Positions 31,133 through 63,766 of a stretch of DNA of 64,000 bases are shown here, piece by piece (positions within the stretch are counted from its first letter, which is position 1; each line of letters starts with the position of its first letter). Origin of the DNA: a virus (lineage: Duplodnaviria; Caudoviricetes); IMG/VR virus record IMGVR_UViG_3300027805_000006. The stretch is one strand, 5' to 3'. The notes under the pieces are model-generated. The model had not been told where the DNA came from. It made no database searches and was given only the letters and a program-made list of their open reading frames with translations. The position numbers were made by a program, and so were the translations under genes.

Positions 31133-32719
31133 ATGACAAAAAATAGAACTTTAGATGATCACATCAAACTTGGGCACGTTCGGTACATTTCAAAAGATGC
31201 TGAACAGGAACTTATAGAAAGAACGCCTGGTTGTAGTGGTGACAATGCAGAAAGATTATTTTGGCTTTTGAATGGATTGTCTTCATATCCTAAATGTCAA
31301 TCGTGTTCTAACACTTTAACATCTAAACAGTGGCAGCCTTTCTTAAAGAAACTTCACCGTACTGATGAAAACAAAAAGAGTGGTTATCTTCCATTTTGCG
31401 GAAAAAGTTGCGCTTATCTTAATGGGTCAAAAAAGGAAACCTATAAAAAAACCTGTATTGAGCGCTACGGGGTTGAACACCCAATGCTGACAGACGATGT
31501 TGTTGCCAAGATAAAAGCAACTAACATTGACCGCTATGGAGAACCAGCACCTATGCGCTGGTCTGGTCAAAAATTCAAAGATGCTATTAGGCAAAAATAC
31601 AATGTAGAAAATGTGCGGGCAATACCACGGGTGCATGAAGCAACAATTTACGCGAAAGCAAAAACAACTACTGAACTGCTACCTCTAAAAATTATTGAAT
31701 TAGAAAAATTGTTTAACGTAGAATGTCAAACAGATTTATCACAATTTGTTCTTATTCATCGCATGTATGATATTTCATTTTCTTGGAAACACAAGTGTGG
31801 AAGGGTTTATGAAAGCAATATATCTGAGCGTGGAATTCGCCAGTGCCCAAGTTGCTCATCAGGAACATCTAAAGGTGAGCAGGCAGTCATGGACTTTATT
31901 AAGTCTCTTGGCATAGAGGTTGAGCATCGAAACAAGTCAGTGATTGCACCAAAAGAAATTGACATCTGGATACCTGAGCATAAACTCGGTATTGAGTTTG
32001 ACGGTACCTACTGGCACAGCGCTAAGTTCCAAAATGAAAAGCAGAGTTTAGAAAAACTGACCATGATGGAGCAGATTGGCTGTCGTCTAATTACGCTGCA
32101 GGAGCACCTGTGGGTCAATAAGCCTGAGCACGTCAAGAACCGGTTGGCGTCAATTCTAGGTAGAAATAAACGAGTGCAGGGTAGAAAAACAGAGGTACGC
32201 GAGATTGACAAGGAAGCGGCGCGGGAGTTCCTAACTGAGAACCACCTTCAGGGCTATGCACGTTCAACTGTGCAACTTGGTCTGTTTTACAAGGATGAAC
32301 TCATCTCAGTTGCTACCTTCTCAAAGCCAAGGTGGGCAAAAAAGCATGACTGGGAATTAATTCGCATGGCTTCAAAGGCTGGATTAATGGTGCAGGGTGG
32401 ACCATCAAAACTTATATCTGAGTTTAGGAAAAATTATTCTGGAAGTTTAATAAGTTACGCTGATCGGTGCTGGAGCACAGGCAACGTTTATAATCAAGTT
32501 GGTTTTAAGTTTAGCCACTTTACGACTCCCTCCTATTGGTGGATCCACCATATGTTGGGAACATATGCCAGGTACCAGACACAGAAGAAAAAACTTCCAA
32601 GGCTCCTCACAGATCTTAATAAGACGTTTTCTCCAGAACTTTCTGAGGAAGACAATATGCGAATTGCTGGGTTTTTGCCGCTGTATGACCGAGGAAATAG
32701 CGTTTGGATTTTAGCCTAA
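31133..32719 (+). mobile_element. Free-standing Hef-like (DUF559/Vsr-type PD-(D/E)xK) homing endonuclease
   Basis: Zn ribbons (CQSC, FCGKSC, CPSC), ERYGVEHP repeats, EIDIWIPEHKLGIEFDGTYWHS nuclease core, C-terminal YADRCWSTG domain; antisense to the structural operon. Confidence 0.8.
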
Positions 32720-57343: not shown

Positions 57344-57564
57344 TCATTTCTGGTGAGGCGAGCAGGATCGCCGAGATGATCAATTCAATGGGTATAGAAG
57401 TAAGAAACCTGCTCAAGTCAGCAATTGAGATTGCTTACTTTTCAAGAGGCTCCATTCAATATGAATCAGTACTGCATATGACCCCGCTTGAGCGGGATAT
57501 TGCAGTTGAATTTATCAATAGGAGACTTGAGTTAGCCTCCAAGATGTCATTCCCTGTATTCTGA
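57340..57564 (+). CDS. Baseplate hub assembly protein (gp51-like)
   Basis: Small gene coupled to the gp26-like gene; RGSIQYESVLHMTPLER. Confidence 0.55.
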   Translation: MIISGEASRIAEMINSMGIEVRNLLKSAIEIAYFSRGSIQYESVLHMTPLERDIAVEFINRRLELASKMSFPVF

Positions 57565-57567
57565 TAA

Positions 57568-58803
57568 CTACGTAGTCAGTTTGATGCCAATGGTGTTGAT
57601 GATGCGTGGCAGTTCATCAATATACTGCCGCGGCACCCCATCAATTCCATCGTGCATCATAATGCCGTGACGGTCAATCTCATTCCAAATTAGGTAGCGC
57701 GCCCCTCTCTCCCACTCAAAGTAGTTTGAGAATACGCGTTTTTGGTTCTTGAGCGATGGGTTAAGTTTCAAGTTTGCTGCACACACCGCCTTCTTTGCAC
57801 GTGAGTACTGCCTCGAAATAGTTTGAAGCCGAGCGCCAATCTTCTCAAGACGACTTTGACTTACATCTCCTGACGCTTGAATGATAAGTTGAGCGGTAAC
57901 TGAAAAAGAATTGCCTCCTGACATAATTGCTGGTGAAATTCTTGACCCATTTGCAAGGCTCATACATACCTTCTTTACAACAGAAATTCCTTCTTCATTC
58001 CACTCAAGCCCGAGAGTGTTTTCACAGAGGTCCTTTCGCCACTTCTGCTTATCGTCGATTAGTTGTTTAAGGTCTGGGTAAAGCATCTTCACGAGACGTT
58101 GCTTAGTACTATAAATTTCACTAATGTGTGACATTAAATATTGCGTATATGCACTATCAATATCAATTGATGCACCAAACAATTTTTCACGCAACCAAGA
58201 TGGCCACGTCTCAATTGCAGCAATTGGCCAAATTGAGGTATCACGCTGCTTCAATTTACCAGCAGGTTGAAAAACAAAATTTACTTCGTCTTGCTGAAGA
58301 AGCCACTTGACAGGCGCAATTAAATCAACACGACCCTCACTATAAAGTTGGTCAAGTATATTTGACGAGTTGCTTCTGATGATATAGACCTTTGATATAA
58401 CTCCATCTGGGCGTTCAGCAGGCACAAACTGAAGATCAAGTTCTGTTGTCTGAGCCTCAATATTATTTTCTAACTTTTTTGGAATAAGCAGTGATATCTG
58501 CTTGTCATCATTTGCAATATTGTAGCCTAGTTGCTGTACGTCAAAAAAATAATCTAGGGCACGCCTATAGTCATATACCCAATCCCTAAGAGCAACGAGC
58601 CGCAGTTTAATTGGATAGAATGCTCTGCACGCAGCGTTGCGCATTGAATGCGAGTGCAGATTTGCAAGAAAAAGAATTAAGTCTTGCCTATCTTGCTGCC
58701 TCTGTCGATGAATTCTACTCTTGTCGTTGTAGAAGCGACTGACGTGAAGAGGATCTGCAGGGCTGATCACCCGGCTTGCCTTCACCCTGTAGATTGCGCT
58801 CAC
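57568..58803 (-). CDS. PolA/T7-RNAP-superfamily palm-domain protein (TV-Pol-like), putative
   Basis: SIDIDSAY (motif A), VKKVCMSLANG (motif B-like), FEWE, MMHDGIDG (motif C) in the correct order. Confidence 0.45.
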   Translation of the reverse strand: MSAIYRVKASRVISPADPLHVSRFYNDKSRIHRQRQQDRQDLILFLANLHSHSMRNAACRAFYPIKLRLVALRDWVYDYRRALDYFFDVQQLGYNIANDDKQISLLIPKKLENNIEAQTTELDLQFVPAERPDGVISKVYIIRSNSSNILDQLYSEGRVDLIAPVKWLLQQDEVNFVFQPAGKLKQRDTSIWPIAAIETWPSWLREKLFGASIDIDSAYTQYLMSHISEIYSTKQRLVKMLYPDLKQLIDDKQKWRKDLCENTLGLEWNEEGISVVKKVCMSLANGSRISPAIMSGGNSFSVTAQLIIQASGDVSQSRLEKIGARLQTISRQYSRAKKAVCAANLKLNPSLKNQKRVFSNYFEWERGARYLIWNEIDRHGIMMHDGIDGVPRQYIDELPRIINTIGIKLTT

Positions 58804-59027
58804 ACGCGCCCGGTCTTCAACTTCTTATAAATTGACTTTACGCTATCTGGTCGAACAAGCAGTTGATAGCGTGGTGCTGAAGGCTGACTATTTTCCGATT
58901 TTGCAAATCTATTTTCGTACGTCTTAACGACGTATCCATCTTTCTTAATATCCTTACCTGCCTCTGATAAGGTAGTAGCGAGACCCAGCGCCGCCCGCCG
59001 CATCCTCTTTGCTTGTTTTCCGTTCAT
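58800..59027 (-). CDS. Small basic hypothetical protein
   Basis: MNGKQAKRMRR; coupled to 57568. Confidence 0.65.
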   Translation of the reverse strand: MNGKQAKRMRRAALGLATTLSEAGKDIKKDGYVVKTYENRFAKSENSQPSAPRYQLLVRPDSVKSIYKKLKTGRV

Positions 59028-59048: not shown

Positions 59049-59651
59049 TCACCAGATCCCAGCGTACTTGGGATTTAAAACAGTATCTGCCCAGTCAGGG
59101 ATATATCCAAAATTTTGCTTAAAAAATAACACTTCCCAGTTTTTGGATGATGCTGTGCCAAGCTTAGAGAGCCTAGGTCTTACGATTATAAATCGTATAT
59201 CCTGCGGCTGCCTTAATCCCTTCACAAGGAGAGGTTCTTTAACACCCATCATTTGAATGATTGTATCACTTGGGCTGATCTGTTCCAAATGAAACGCAGG
59301 TATTGGGAGTTGAATTGAGTGAATGACTGAAGGATGTGGAGTTGGCAGTGCCCTAAGACCCTTGCTTGATTCACAAAATCTAACGATTGAATTTAAAAAT
59401 GACTGATACGTAAAGTCATTCACACCGCCTCGCTTAACGTGCGCTTTCACCATATCACGGTCGGGTGGGAAATAAGTTGTTTTTACATCGCCTCTCTGCT
59501 TGGCATTGTACGGCCCAAGGAACTCTGCGGCCTGCACATGCAGGTTGTAGTGGTTTGAAAGAACTGGAATAAGGTCTGAAAAGTCTTGAATTTTTCCTTG
59601 ACGTGAAGCATCAAGCCGGGCATTCCACCTAGGCAGTGTAGTAGTTTCCAT
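59049..59651 (-). CDS. Hypothetical protein
   Basis: 200-aa co-oriented ORF. Confidence 0.65.
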   Translation of the reverse strand: METTTLPRWNARLDASRQGKIQDFSDLIPVLSNHYNLHVQAAEFLGPYNAKQRGDVKTTYFPPDRDMVKAHVKRGGVNDFTYQSFLNSIVRFCESSKGLRALPTPHPSVIHSIQLPIPAFHLEQISPSDTIIQMMGVKEPLLVKGLRQPQDIRFIIVRPRLSKLGTASSKNWEVLFFKQNFGYIPDWADTVLNPKYAGIW

Positions 59652-59657
59652 AATAGT

Positions 59658-60236
59658 TTAAACTTTAGAATACCAAAATTCAATAATTGGTAATAGGTCA
59701 TCAAGATAATAGACGTCAATGCTCTTGCTTATTCCAGCAGCTAAAAGAGTTAGGCGCGGCTTAACACCATTCTCTGTAAGTACACGATAATCAGCTCGGA
59801 CGTCTAAAGTATCCACTGCAACAAAAATAGCAGTTCTATTCCACTTAAAGATAAGCATAGGAGACTTATCAATTTTGCAAGCGTCAACTGCTGCTTCATC
59901 GAACCATTTAAACACATTCGCAGTATTTGAAACAAGCGATGTGAAATTATCTGGAGTAGAGTATGATTTACATTCTATAGAATGTTTAAAATTAAAGCCC
60001 TCTTTTCTCTCATTTACTGGAACAACGTCGCCAACAAAGATCTTAAGTGCTTCCTCGCCGAACATTTGACCTATAGTTTCAAAGTTCTTTCCGCCCACAC
60101 GAGCGCCCGACCCGGGTGTACGGATAAAATTAAGTGGTGCAAGTGCAGCGGTAAGCTTTTTTGCAACGGTGCCTTCGAAGCCGTTGCCTTTTCCCTTGGA
60201 ATTAAATCGCTTTTTCTTGTCTTTTGGCTGTTCCAT
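59658..60236 (-). CDS. Holliday junction resolvase-like PD-(D/E)xK nuclease
   Basis: SKGKGNGFE..VAKKL, RTPGSGA, GDV...IECK pattern. Confidence 0.75.
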   Translation of the reverse strand: MEQPKDKKKRFNSKGKGNGFEGTVAKKLTAALAPLNFIRTPGSGARVGGKNFETIGQMFGEEALKIFVGDVVPVNERKEGFNFKHSIECKSYSTPDNFTSLVSNTANVFKWFDEAAVDACKIDKSPMLIFKWNRTAIFVAVDTLDVRADYRVLTENGVKPRLTLLAAGISKSIDVYYLDDLLPIIEFWYSKV

Positions 60237-60930
60237 TTTTTACCATCTTTGCTAATTGTTTGGATGTTATTCCAAGTTGACGAAGTGCTGCACACCCAGA
60301 TTTATATGTGATACCATTCACGGTATACTGCACTGCATTTACTGGGGTTCTACCTACATTCATTTTCCCGACCTCAGCCATTGCAGTGCGCCGCTTGGGA
60401 TCTTCAAGCATAATTTTTTGTGCTGCCGCCATCTTTGCACGAGTTTCTGCAGAGCGTGTTATTCCTTTAAGCCCATCAGAGGTCTTCCTCTTCTCTTCGG
60501 CGGTTCGCGGAATACCCAGCTTGGCATTCCTCATCTTCTTCTTTACTTCTGGGTTTGCTAATGCAACCTTGACCCCGGCACTGATCTTTTCTATGATCTC
60601 GCTCCTACGCAGCATAGTATCTTCGCCCCATCCTCCCTCCGCACGCGCTATGTTAAAGAGTATTATCCCCTCAGATCTAAGGCGATCTATGTGCTCGTTT
60701 TCAATTGCAAAGTAGAATGCCTTGTCATAAGGACCAAGCAATTCGGTGATCTCATAGCTAAACGCTTCAGCCCCATACTTCTGCCAAGCATGCTGCAGAT
60801 GCCTGTTGAAATGTTTATTGTTTAGTAACAATCCAACGTGCACGCCCCACCGCTTGTCTATGTTCTTGGCTGAGCCCAAGTAGACCTTTTGATTAGCTGA
60901 ACATGTAATAGTGTAGATGCCTCCGCGCAT
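60202..60930 (-). mobile_element. Free-standing GIY-YIG homing endonuclease with NUMOD3-like repeats
   Basis: GGIYTITC..NQKVYLGSA...RW..H...L...H.N.HLQ.AW.KYG; RTAEEKRKTSDGLKG repeats. Confidence 0.88.
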
Positions 60931-61128: not shown

Positions 61129-61596
61129 TTATTTCTTTTCAGTGAAGTTGTCTTCGAAGTACTTTGCCTTTTGCACCGTGTAGGTGAACTCATCTTCATC
61201 AGTCTGGCGGATTAGATAGTCGCCCTTCTTAATGGTTTCAGTGTTACCCTCAAGGTCAATTTTTGAAGTATCACCTTCATACTTAAACGCTTCTACTTCT
61301 TCAGCATCTCGATAGACAATAAATCCCTCAGCATCTTCTTTTTGGTTTGCTCTTACAGGAACATAGTTATCCTCTAGTTCCTCTGAATCCATAGTGGAAA
61401 CAAGTTTGCGCTTGCCTGAAGTATCAGAGAACACCTCATATTCTGTTGGGACGCTATCTGGTACTTTTTTGACCATATAGACAGCATTAGGCACATAGTT
61501 AAGTGCGCTGTCTTTATTTTCCTTCCAGATATCAGCAGCCTTGATTGTTTCAAGGGCTTCTTCACTGATAGACAAAAGTTCCTGGAGAAGTTTCAT
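61129..61596 (-). CDS. Putative internal head protein
   Basis: Leader MKLLQELLSISEE; KKGDYLIR motif. Confidence 0.6.
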   Translation of the reverse strand: MKLLQELLSISEEALETIKAADIWKENKDSALNYVPNAVYMVKKVPDSVPTEYEVFSDTSGKRKLVSTMDSEELEDNYVPVRANQKEDAEGFIVYRDAEEVEAFKYEGDTSKIDLEGNTETIKKGDYLIRQTDEDEFTYTVQKAKYFEDNFTEKK

Positions 61597-61975
61597 ATTC
61601 GGTCCTGAATTGCAAGTTAGTTATAGAGAGCAGCGCGGCATCTGCGCTTTTTATAATGTTATTTAGTTGATTTTCGTACTCAATAATTTTTTTTTCTGGA
61701 ATAGACATAAAATTCAGCATTACTGCAATGTGTTCTACAATCTTACAGTTACCCATTAATTCAAAGTCCTTAAGTAAAGGTTCTTCTTCTACCTCTTCTA
61801 CGCTCAAGATGTAGTGCTCGTATGGGAATTCCAGTCTTCGCCGTAAAAACAGTTGACCAAATAATTTTGATTTTGCCGTTCCAACGTCACATATCTTATT
61901 TAATGCAGCAGTAACAACCTGTTGCATCTTATCACGTGAGGCGAGTGCGGCTTCTAGTCTGTCAATATTAGTCAT
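61562..61975 (-). CDS. Hypothetical protein (start probably MTNIDR)
   Basis: ORF track 61562..61996; GGGG RBS before 61975. Confidence 0.6.
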   Translation of the reverse strand: MTNIDRLEAALASRDKMQQVVTAALNKICDVGTAKSKLFGQLFLRRRLEFPYEHYILSVEEVEEEPLLKDFELMGNCKIVEHIAVMLNFMSIPEKKIIEYENQLNNIIKSADAALLSITNLQFRTEYETSPGTFVYQ

Positions 61976-62026
61976 ACTGACCCCAATAATAAACAATATT
62001 TACAGAGCACTCGTGAAAATATATTC

Positions 62027-63766
62027 TTATTGAACTACAACTTCGGAAAATCCATTTATTTTTCTAACAAGAAGGCTGTTGTCAAGTCTTCCGGCAATTG
62101 CTGGGTGATGACTAATTACAAAGATGCTCATTTCTTCATCTCGTGCCTTCTCTTTCAGAAGCCGGACAATTGAATCGATTCCGTTTTGGTCCAGGGCGCC
62201 ATCTAACTCATCAATTAACAGAACATTAGTACGAGCGTGTAGGTGGTGCAGTACGTCTCTAAATGCAAGCATTAGCGCAGTATTCACCCGCTTCTTTTCA
62301 CCAGCGCTCAGATTTCCAAAGTCTAGTTCTCTCCCAAACTCAGAAACAGTACAACTCATATCTGCATCAAACTTTACTAGGTGCGGCAGACCAAGAGTAC
62401 GAGTGTAGAGATTTACTCTGGAGTTTAGGAATGGAATTGTTTGATTGATAATTTTCCTGCGCAGGAAAGAATTTTTATCTGTAAGCAGTTTTACAAGAAA
62501 GTTTTGGTGGTCAAGCCTTTTACGAAGGACATCAACTTTAGAAAAGTCAATCGTATCTACCGCCTCATTTAAAAGAGTATCTCGAGCCTCGACGTGCGGG
62601 TTTTCAGCCAACTTTAACTCTTCAATTTTGTTTCGAAGAGATGCAGCATTTTCTCGTGCTGTCAGCAGGTCAGCAAGGTCAGGGTGTTTGATTTCACTTT
62701 CGAGAGTGGCAAGTCGGTCCTTCTTTTGCTTTAACTCTACATCGAGAGTTGTTTCCTTCTCTTCAGTTTCAAGAAGTTTTGCACCTTTTTCTTCTAGCAA
62801 TTGACGAAGGGCGCTGAGACGCTCTGGCGCACTTGCATATGTCTGCGAGCAGTATGGACACCTTTGGTCTACCAAGTGGCTCTCTTCACCTATTAACTTT
62901 TCTACTTCTTTTGAAAGGAACTGCTTGTCCTTCTTCAATGGCACTAGACGCGCAGAAAGGTATGCGCTCTCTTCCTTCAGTTTATCCTTCTCATCATGTA
63001 GAGACTTCTCAGAGACAAAATCGATTGTTGCAAGCGCCTCAAGCGTTGCCTCGATATTCGTAATATTTTCTGCTCTAGACGTTTCCCACCGACTAACGCG
63101 GTCTTCTGCTTCCTTCAGGTGCTTCTTGTGAAGGTCAACTGCAACCTGTTGCTGAGCACAAACGGCTTCTGCAATCTTAATATCACTTTCTGTTTGCCTG
63201 ATTTTCTCCTTTAGCATCTGCGCCTTCTCAGAAAGCATTGTGATGTTGAATAACTCCTCAATCTGGTTGCGCTGCTGGGCAATTGGTAACTGCAAGAAGG
63301 CAGGAGAATTTCCAGAGAAAATTACTGTCTTTGTAAAAAGGTCGTATGAAATTCCGATGATGCTCTCAATTAACTCGTCGCACTCTGTCACACCCTTGCC
63401 TGGAGTAATGTCCTCACCATCGCGCTTGATTTCAATCTTGTACTCTTCACCTCGCGCTCGATAAATCTCATATTCAATGCCACCTTTTTCAAAAATAAGA
63501 CGAACTTCCATCAGCGTATTCTTAGTGGCATTGGTACTATTGATTAGACGCTGTAGGCTAATGCTATCAAATGGCTTATTGAAGATTGCGTAGCAAAGAG
63601 CATTAATGATTGATGACTTGCCGCTGCCATTGCTTCCACCATTGTCTAGGTTTTGTCCTTCAATCGATACCGTCTTCTGCTCAAAGAGGTCAAATACCTG
63701 TGTTTGGTTACCGTATGACAGAAAGTTTCTGACTTCGAGCGTCTTGAAGATAAGAGGGATTGACAT
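62027..63766 (-). CDS. gp46: Recombination endonuclease ATPase subunit (gp46/SbcC-like)
   Basis: NFLSYGN, GSNGSGKSS Walker A, coiled coil with a CPYC hook, LSAGEKKR signature, LLIDELD, ISHH. Confidence 0.93.
   Translation of the reverse strand: MSIPLIFKTLEVRNFLSYGNQTQVFDLFEQKTVSIEGQNLDNGGSNGSGKSSIINALCYAIFNKPFDSISLQRLINSTNATKNTLMEVRLIFEKGGIEYEIYRARGEEYKIEIKRDGEDITPGKGVTECDELIESIIGISYDLFTKTVIFSGNSPAFLQLPIAQQRNQIEELFNITMLSEKAQMLKEKIRQTESDIKIAEAVCAQQQVAVDLHKKHLKEAEDRVSRWETSRAENITNIEATLEALATIDFVSEKSLHDEKDKLKEESAYLSARLVPLKKDKQFLSKEVEKLIGEESHLVDQRCPYCSQTYASAPERLSALRQLLEEKGAKLLETEEKETTLDVELKQKKDRLATLESEIKHPDLADLLTARENAASLRNKIEELKLAENPHVEARDTLLNEAVDTIDFSKVDVLRKRLDHQNFLVKLLTDKNSFLRRKIINQTIPFLNSRVNLYTRTLGLPHLVKFDADMSCTVSEFGRELDFGNLSAGEKKRVNTALMLAFRDVLHHLHARTNVLLIDELDGALDQNGIDSIVRLLKEKARDEEMSIFVISHHPAIAGRLDNSLLVRKINGFSEVVVQ

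Follow-up and report, generated by a model that had tools for sequence, protein, structure and literature searches.

Small polymerases of the PolA type have been described from viruses and mobile elements. The TV-Pol family (Iyer, Abhiman and Aravind 2008, PMC2579912) includes, e.g., the N-terminal domain of the virophage replication protein (Sputnik V13, Zamilon). Barbaviruses and other phages encode divPolA2 (PMC11348598; representative AUR84708 of Vibrio phage 1.063.O), and SCCmec as well as other elements of Bacillota carry the CcPol-MP or PolA-SSB primases (Bebel et al. 2020, PMC7581432; Rice 2023, PMC10061031), whose small partner protein confers single-stranded DNA (ssDNA) binding and primase activity (PMC10061031). 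Here, we describe Pol411, a minimal PolA-superfamily polymerase of 411 amino acids (aa) encoded in IMG/VR record IMGVR_UViG_3300027805_000006, of which we analyzed a stretch of 64,000 nucleotides (hereafter the window). The window encodes a Gp23 capsid protein, a T4-type portal, a sheath, and a T4 baseplate hub protein and therefore belongs to a T4-related phage, and since the identical Pol411 protein is recorded on a contig of 329,993 bp we regard its source as a jumbo phage. Pol411 appears to form a sequence family of its own in an uncultured lineage of such phages, in a gene string that also encodes a small basic protein (sm75) and a protein resembling the WED and REC domains of TnpB/Cas12f (WED/REC protein). 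The explanation that we favor, and to which we give about an even chance of being right, is that Pol411 is an active, exonuclease-less, short-thumbed polymerase of the PolA/T7-RNA polymerase superfamily that would make short stretches of DNA in recombination or repair.

The AlphaFold2 model of Pol411 (built on 40 homologues; pLDDT 89, pTM 0.81) is composed of two short thumb helices, a hairpin, a strand bearing D214 followed by a helix, helical fingers, and a beta-turn-beta element. Both Foldseek and the exhaustive VIA search recognize palm and fingers of the PolA/T7-RNA polymerase type in this model, i.e., the right-hand palm that an earlier note on this DNA, made from the letters alone, had expected. 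All 50 matches listed by Foldseek against the PDB are family A DNA polymerases (DNAPs; probability about 1.0). In VIA, residues ~130–411 align over ~240 residues at a root-mean-square deviation (rmsd) of 4–5 Å, with the best scores for Pol theta (Z 10.4, 240 residues, rmsd 4.2), Klenow (Z 9.4), yeast mitochondrial RNA polymerase (RNAP; Z 8.9), and T7 DNAP and T7 RNAP (Z 8.1 each), followed by N4 RNAP II gp16 (Z 5.1) and, lower, by family B enzymes (Z under 5). A second structural search returned 133 chains at Z of at least 8 (best 11.5), Taq and Bst included. Among the viral models of BFVD, the best named matches are replication proteins of Zamilon and the Qinghai Lake virophage (found within ranks 4–13 and 30; E 2e-4 to 2e-2, TMq ~0.4), and row 1 in the ESM Atlas is a D5_N-bearing Preplasmiviricota cluster (TM 0.46, rmsd 3.9, 233 residues) that ranks before a phage DNA_pol_A cluster; AFDB gave the same mix plus two uncharacterised proteins of 424–487 aa that align nearly full length. 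As also anticipated by the earlier note, there is no exonuclease or helicase domain: Pfam (no match at E <= 1), PHROGs, and NCBIfam yield nothing for Pol411, and the structural matches span only the polymerase domain of their targets. The N-terminal domain outside the aligned range is conserved within the family (PLH, RQxLI, LRxW, FF, and an invariant G93) and has only weak VIA matches (Z about 4.3, AFV1 ORF140/132). Membership of Pol411 in the PolA/T7-RNAP superfamily is thus supported by its predicted fold and its Asp motifs. Like family A DNAPs (Klenow, Taq, Bst, T7 gp5, Pol theta) and T7-like RNAPs, it has palm and fingers and, in the same order and spacing, a T/DxxGR-like hairpin and motifs A, B, and C; it differs from them in having less than 13% identity, no profile match, and less than half their size, in the replacement of the motif B Tyr by Asn and Arg by Ile, and in the absence of the Glu after the motif C Asp.

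Conservation was scored in 141 homologues of at least 340 aa (C-terminal positions in 140) and checked further in a 26-sequence alignment reaching 17% identity. R187, D214, R256, K277, and G286 are invariant in 141/141 homologues and E365, H384, and D385 in 140/140, and R187, D214, K277, G286, E365, H384, and D385 remain invariant down to 17% identity, including the two Asp residues whose conservation the earlier note had proposed as a check. The motifs that it had read in the C-terminal half lie exactly where it had placed them (SIDIDSAY at residues 212–219, nt 58170–58147; WRKDL...VKKVCMSLANG at 255–286, 58041–57946; FEWE at 362–365; MMHDGIDG at 382–389, 57660–57637), and their conservation in the 141 homologues, as judged from the alignment, is far beyond chance. 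The hairpin 173–192 bears G182-[KR]183-L184 and R187-D188 (position 188 is D in 136 and E in 5 of 141 homologues) and seems to parallel the T/DxxGR segment of T7 DNAP (TGRATHAFPNL) and T7 RNAP (DWRGRVY). In motif A, strand 211–215 is followed by helix 218–230, with Q221 in 141/141 and Y219 at the sugar-gate position (134 Y and 5 F of 141); the spacing of D214-IDSA-Y219 equals that of D475-ASGL-E480 in T7 DNAP and D537-GSCS-G542 in T7 RNAP. Motif B keeps M281 and N285 in 139/141 homologues each and has I, V, or L at position 273 in 129/141, so that the canonical pattern R-x3-K-x3-[FYM]-x3-Y-G is broken at its Arg (I/V/L instead) and its Tyr (Asn instead). The helix before motif C includes R366 (137/140) and R369 (140/140), and its E365-R366 may resemble the E-R of the corresponding helix in Pol I enzymes. 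The motif C turn is flanked by strands 379–382 and 386–390 and reads MHDG in Pol411, compared to IHDS in T7 RNAP, VHDE in T7 DNAP, and VHDC in N4 gp16.

The invariance of these catalytic residues speaks for an active enzyme with a two-metal mechanism. The metals would be held by D214 of motif A and D385 of motif C, which, judging by topology, would lie close in space (D214 is at the end of strand 211–215, and the turn of hairpin 379–382/386–390 carries D385). The incoming triphosphate would be bound by K277 on the O-helix, probably helped by R256 in the preceding helix, which may stand in for the missing O-helix Arg, and R187 on the hairpin would contact primer-template. The canonical residues that Pol411 lacks (Arg and Tyr of the O-helix, and a Glu following the second Asp) could instead be read as signs of a catalytically dead polymerase fold that has been reused for DNA binding or structure. 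We consider this extremely improbable, given that neither the 141 sequences nor the alignment reaching 17% identity shows any deviation at the metal Asps, the His before the second of them, the Lys of the O-helix, or the Arg of the hairpin, a pattern expected only if catalysis is under selection.

Pol411 homologues form 272 clusters at 90% identity, almost all of 395–425 aa and all unnamed, on contigs of up to 375 kb, and the family has 40 loci in IMG/VR. A HMMER profile search of 1.84 billion representatives retrieved only 51 clusters at 50% identity, none of them recognisable as TV-Pol or PolA, and the family is therefore narrow. It is also effectively phage-specific, since among 185,579 species genomes the gene was found on only two short, mis-binned-looking contigs of metagenome-assembled genomes. 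Searches of 50,697 phage records (INPHARED, barbaviruses included) by tblastn gave no match for Pol411, nor for its remote relatives P0166 and P0162. A Pfam scan of 26 family and remote members found no family, with PF00476 and PF00940 absent even among chance matches at E <= 5, and the family profile hit nothing among PDB sequences except TraH at E 0.19, which is spurious. A hit to DUF4765 in a protein-atlas feature search (0.77) was rejected as lying under the usable threshold. Alignments of the family profile by hhalign to T7 RNAP, T7 DNAP, N4 gp16, and divPolA2 were insignificant, which is no evidence against homology as single sequences are weak targets; among them, the Pol411 motif B segment was paired with motif B of T7 RNAP, not significantly.

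The remote relatives P0162, P0163, P0166, P0167, P0169, and P0170 (loci L007–L009) are proteins of 366–752 aa without a Pfam domain that keep the hairpin Arg, the motif A Asp, a motif B of the form K...[YNV]G (Y-G in P0163 and P0166), and the HDG of motif C. They sit on contigs of 1.7–3.7 kb with little else, so that their context is uninformative, and may point to a broader "HDG" group of polymerases that small elements carry and that lacks annotation.

The earlier note had called the protein TV-Pol-like, and in terms of structure this holds, with virophage V13-type proteins, whose N-terminal domain founded the TV-Pol family, and D5_N Preplasmiviricota models among the nearest matches. Pol411 shares with TV-Pol an exonuclease-less minimal PolA core with a two-helix thumb, a hairpin with an invariant Arg, a two-Asp palm of the RRM type, and fingers with a Lys, as well as residence in a genome that has a regular polymerase, too. 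The resemblance does not extend to demonstrated membership in the family: of the defining RxxxK motif, Pol411 keeps the Lys as the invariant K277 but has no Arg (position 273); neither the 51 clusters nor the Pfam scan provided a sequence or profile link, and a profile of the Pol411 family had no match in the record of Microcystis phage Ma-LMM01; and the 43 related Pol411 loci show no D5-like helicase as fusion or neighbor and no resolvase/integrase/transposase element. Moreover, the N-terminal domain is all-helical in TV-Pol but alpha/beta in Pol411. A TV-Pol of a mobile element was likewise rejected, as the Pol411 gene is fixed in position and syntenic.

In architecture and genomic situation, the closest analogue of Pol411 is divPolA2, a protein of about 430 aa in which palm and fingers are joined to a globular N-terminal domain of unknown fold, with neither exonuclease nor canonical thumb; it is likewise encoded in addition to a replicative family B polymerase (PolB) and has structural matches to DNAPs and to mitochondrial and N4 RNAPs (PMC11348598). 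The two have no detectable sequence relation (hhalign probability 0.3% against the single sequence AUR84708), and the divPolA2 of Barba31A appears only at rank 24 in BFVD (E 1.2e-2, TM 0.25). By eye, divPolA2 keeps D..FE and FDE where Pol411 has DIDSAY, K..M..ANG, and HDG, and its neighborhoods are variable whereas that of Pol411 is fixed. CcPol-MP resembles Pol411 as a truncated A-family polymerase with a shortened thumb and a small partner gene adjoining, yet CcPol is recognisably derived from Pol I, retains part of the 3'-5' exonuclease fold, and has as its partner an OB-fold protein encoded between polymerase and helicase on an integrative element. Pol411, in contrast, has no adjacent helicase, and its small protein lies upstream.

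Is Pol411 the replicative enzyme of its phage? Five large IMG/VR relatives (234–350 kb, two of them at least 97% complete) were searched whole, and each encodes a PolB of 914–993 aa far from the Pol411 gene as well as a DnaB-like helicase. A frame of ~340 aa adjoining the helicase has a weak Toprim_2 match (E ~1e-4, under the Pfam cut-off) and is a candidate gp61-like primase. The expectation of the earlier note that T4-like phages use a PolB and a DnaG-type primase was thus borne out in the five relatives for PolB, together with the DnaB-like helicase, and for the primase only by this weak match. Given PolB, DnaB-like helicase, and Toprim-like primase candidate, we regard Pol411 as accessory and reject a role as replicative polymerase or sole primase; for the latter function, we conclude that Pol411 is probably not the only primase of the phage. 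A packaged virion enzyme was rejected, too, because the Pol411 N-terminus has no capsid-targeting leader (by inspection only).

A dedicated primase that, similar to CcPol-MP, combines a PolA core with a small partner and starts de novo on ssDNA for recombination-dependent or origin-independent replication is a more specific proposal, and one that we consider decidedly unlikely. It draws on the TV-Pol-type proteins among the nearest viral and metagenomic structures and on the finding that CcPol, a TV-Pol member with a short thumb, primes only with the small ssDNA-binding MP protein (PMC10061031). At the Pol411 locus, a small basic protein is translationally coupled to the polymerase in many loci and the WED/REC protein is syntenic, but partners are absent from some loci, and no OB fold has been demonstrated for sm75. 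Besides the T4-type primase candidate and helicase already present in the relatives, the lack of an adjacent helicase gene sets Pol411 apart from every TV-Pol and CcPol context.

Motifs A and B bear on the choice between DNA and RNA as product. At +5 of motif A, Pol411 has Tyr/Phe where T7 DNAP has its steric-gate Glu and T7 RNAP has Gly, and the equivalent of Tyr639, which T7 RNAP uses in ribose recognition, is Asn. Together, these residues favor dNTP use, and Pol411 probably makes DNA rather than RNA, a conclusion that rests on the register given by motif spacing. The serious rival is a minimal single-subunit RNAP like N4 RNAP II that would transcribe a subset of the phage genes or produce R-loops or RNA primers and be recruited to its template by sm75, the WED/REC protein, or both. 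Motifs B and C are indeed nearer to T7 RNAP: about 10 of 16 positions match between ISVVKKVCMSLANGSR of Pol411 and RSVTKRSVMTLAYGSK of T7 RNAP (R627-SVT-K631-RSV-M635-TLA-Y639-G640-S), and motif C has HD followed by a small residue as in T7 RNAP (HDS) and N4 gp16 (HDC) rather than HDE. The structural matches include the mitochondrial, T7, and N4 RNAPs listed above, although DNAPs score slightly higher than RNAPs in these searches, and the published analogue divPolA2 has likewise been held a possible RNAP (PMC11348598). No PF00940-type RNAP was found in the five large relatives, which shows little as no control genome matched either. Apart from the residues at the sugar gate and the Tyr639 equivalent, an RNAP of this kind is at odds with the apparent lack of a promoter-recognition N-terminal domain or specificity loop (411 aa, no PF00940 match) and with a gp55-like sigma candidate (faint Sigma70_r2 match) that suggests late transcription by the host RNAP. 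Overall, we judge it unlikely that Pol411 is an RNAP.

The genomic context points to recombination. In most of the 43 related loci, a string of genes on one strand runs from a gp55-like sigma candidate, which adjoins gp47 in the relatives, via gp47-like (Mre11 phosphoesterase type) and gp46-like (Rad50 ATPase type) genes, 1–2 small genes, a PDDEXK_15 nuclease, a ~197-aa protein, and a basic protein to Pol411, followed downstream by convergent gp51-like and gp26-like baseplate hub genes and then the tape measure; homing endonucleases and other genes are inserted in places. The gp46-like gene is syntenic in nearly all loci, with a gp47-like Metallophos gene upstream in the relatives, and the PDDEXK nuclease is syntenic in most. 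The operon with a resolvase and two ORFs of unknown function that the earlier note had described is thus real and conserved across related loci, and one of the two ORFs can now be assigned a predicted fold (TnpB/Cas12f WED+REC; see below). The fixed place of Pol411 behind gp47/gp46 and the PDDEXK nuclease favors recombination-dependent replication or repair, and the small thumb together with the lack of an exonuclease argues for short synthesis of low processivity. Pol411 would accordingly act together with the PDDEXK nuclease and with gp46/gp47 as the end-processing complex, making short DNA stretches that extend recombination intermediates (invading ends), fill gaps, or prime; where present, sm75 and the TnpB-derived WED/REC protein may supply nucleic-acid binding.

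A product of another kind is conceivable, with Pol411 as a non-replicative nucleotidyltransferase that performs untemplated tailing of DNA ends, makes a signaling or decoy polynucleotide against host defense, or handles modified DNA. The replacement of both the Tyr and the Arg of the O-helix, which are related to fidelity, would fit relaxed templating, and Pol theta, the best structural match, has terminal-transferase activity; furthermore, a Mom-like/REase-like protein encoded at 31133–32719 hints at DNA modification. Nevertheless, we find this improbable, considering that the Arg hairpin for primer-template and complete fingers are conserved as for a templated enzyme and that Pol411 is a fixed core gene beside recombination genes instead of part of a variable island of defense or counter-defense.

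The WED/REC protein is another component of the gene string. All of its top 32 VIA rows are Cas12, TnpB, or Fanzor proteins, led by residues 1–208 of AsCas12f (Z 10.6) and followed by further Cas12f (10.5, 9.7), Fanzor2 (9.3), and TnpB (9.2), with the next unrelated row at 3.5. Matches extend to Cas12k and other Cas12 proteins and comprise only their N-terminal lobe (target residues 1 to ~210), and Foldseek searches of the PDB (probability ~1.0) and AFDB concur. The protein has no RuvC and no zinc-finger/TNB half; it ends at 200 aa, and the unrelated sm75 gene begins 22 nt downstream. No candidate guide RNA was found for it, as the window contains no Rfam family or tRNA and there is no obvious non-coding stretch nearby. 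Of the 43 loci, 34 encode a WED/REC protein of ~197 aa; the most divergent loci are among them and have its gene immediately ahead of that of Pol411. According to its model, it is a stand-alone, nuclease-less remnant of TnpB/Cas12f and a near-core gene of this jumbo phage lineage. One could imagine that the WED/REC protein and Pol411 (with or without sm75 and the PDDEXK nuclease) are one machine for targeted or guided priming or synthesis, in which the WED/REC lobe would bring Pol411 to defined sites by recognizing a specific nucleic acid, either a DNA motif or an RNA scaffold. We view this as very improbable.

Several points weigh against our favored explanation of Pol411 as a DNA-synthesizing enzyme of recombination or repair. 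The motif B is nearer in sequence to that of T7 RNAP than to those of DNAPs, and motif C reads HDG, where Pol I-type DNAPs have a Glu directly after the Asp. Four residues ahead of its Lys, the O-helix has no Arg, and Asn takes the place of the template-stacking Tyr, indicating that nucleotide binding by Pol411 is non-canonical. The steric-gate argument stands on an assumed register and not on a superposition, and the synteny with gp46/gp47 may be a matter of conserved gene order alone. The WED/REC gene is absent from six untruncated loci and sm75 from about six, so that neither protein is an obligate subunit of Pol411, and no cultured phage among the records searched by tblastn carries the Pol411 gene.

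Table. Features of the Pol411 locus (positions in the window)
Feature	Position	Strand	Basis
Pol411 gene (411-aa minimal PolA-superfamily polymerase)	57568..58803	-	ORF and translation; GTG start, TAG stop
Predicted N-terminal alpha/beta domain of Pol411, residues 1–130, family-specific	58414..58803	-	outside polymerase-aligned range 130–411
Predicted strand, mini-thumb (helices 146–155, 159–169), and beta-hairpin 173–192 of Pol411	58228..58407	-	model secondary structure
Motif A: strand ASIDI with D214, then D/E216, Y219 (+5), Q221	58141..58173	-	conservation, model
Motif B (O-helix): I273-SVV-K277-KVC-M281-SLA-N285-G286-S287	57943..57987	-	conservation, T7 RNAP comparison
Helix before motif C: Y361-F-E-W364-E365-R366-x-x-R369-Y370	57694..57723	-	conservation
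Motif C: beta-turn-beta, H384-D385-G386 at turn, then I-D388-G389	57637..57669	-	conservation, model
sm75, 75-aa basic protein	58800..59027	-	phrog_15472, function unknown
200-aa WED+REC-like protein (TnpB/Cas12f N-terminal lobe)	59049..59651	-	AlphaFold2 model, pLDDT 92
PDDEXK-type nuclease	59658..60236	-	PF24608 PDDEXK_15 3.6e-23; phrog_244 4.4e-16, PHROGs label "RusA-like Holliday junction resolvase"
GIY-YIG homing endonuclease	60202..60930	-	PF01541 6.2e-9, phrog_314 2.7e-30
gp46-like (Rad50/SbcC-type) ATPase, head of the string ending with Pol411	62027..63766	-	SMC_N 3.3e-20, AAA_23

The GTG start of Pol411 overlaps the stop of sm75 by 4 nt (GTGA), and homologues whose alignments begin at residue 1 (M[ST]xIYRV) support this start. 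At its other end, the Pol411 stop lies 3 nt from the stop of the convergent gp51-like gene (57564–57570), a gap that leaves no space for a terminator hairpin between them. Scans of the Pol411 operon for consensus promoters and terminators remained at chance level, and no T4 late-promoter box TATAAATA was found near it. Proteins of the sm75 type have 60–115 aa in related loci and were found by HMM in 33 of the 43; their family alignment has conserved ends, an N-terminal basic helix (MNGKQAKRLRRAAxGLA) and a C-terminal RPDSxKGIYKxLK, which flank a variable middle. In 11 of 16 loci listed, the sm75 stop is located -3 to +20 nt from the Pol411 start.

Further upstream, the GIY-YIG gene lies between the genes of a 155-aa ORF (o155) and the PDDEXK nuclease and overlaps the start of the latter by 35 nt; only two related loci (L012, L042) have a homologue there, and it is a variable insertion outside the conserved module. 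Between gp46 and the nuclease, two ORFs of 155 and 144 aa (61129–61996, minus strand) have no Pfam family, and o155 is kept in nearly all related loci. Elsewhere in the window, the 528-aa ORF at 31133–32719 (plus strand, opposite to its neighbors) matches REase_MTES_1575, DUF7487, and the Mom family in Pfam at a borderline or sub-threshold level and is possibly a gene related to DNA modification or restriction.

Taken by its family, Pol411 would be the third sequence-isolated lineage of minimal PolA-type phage enzymes beside TV-Pol and divPolA2, and a fixed core gene of a widespread uncultured clade of T4-related phages with genomes of ~230–375 kb. It also becomes possible to label about 270 clusters listed so far as "hypothetical proteins". 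With Asn in place of the otherwise universal O-helix Tyr, no O-helix Arg, and Tyr at the sugar gate, these enzymes provide a natural experiment on what a PolA core needs for templating and sugar selection. The recurrent pairing of Pol411 with a WED+REC lobe that has lost its nuclease half is unusual and, if the two proteins work together, would be a new way for phages to reuse parts of RNA-guided nucleases.

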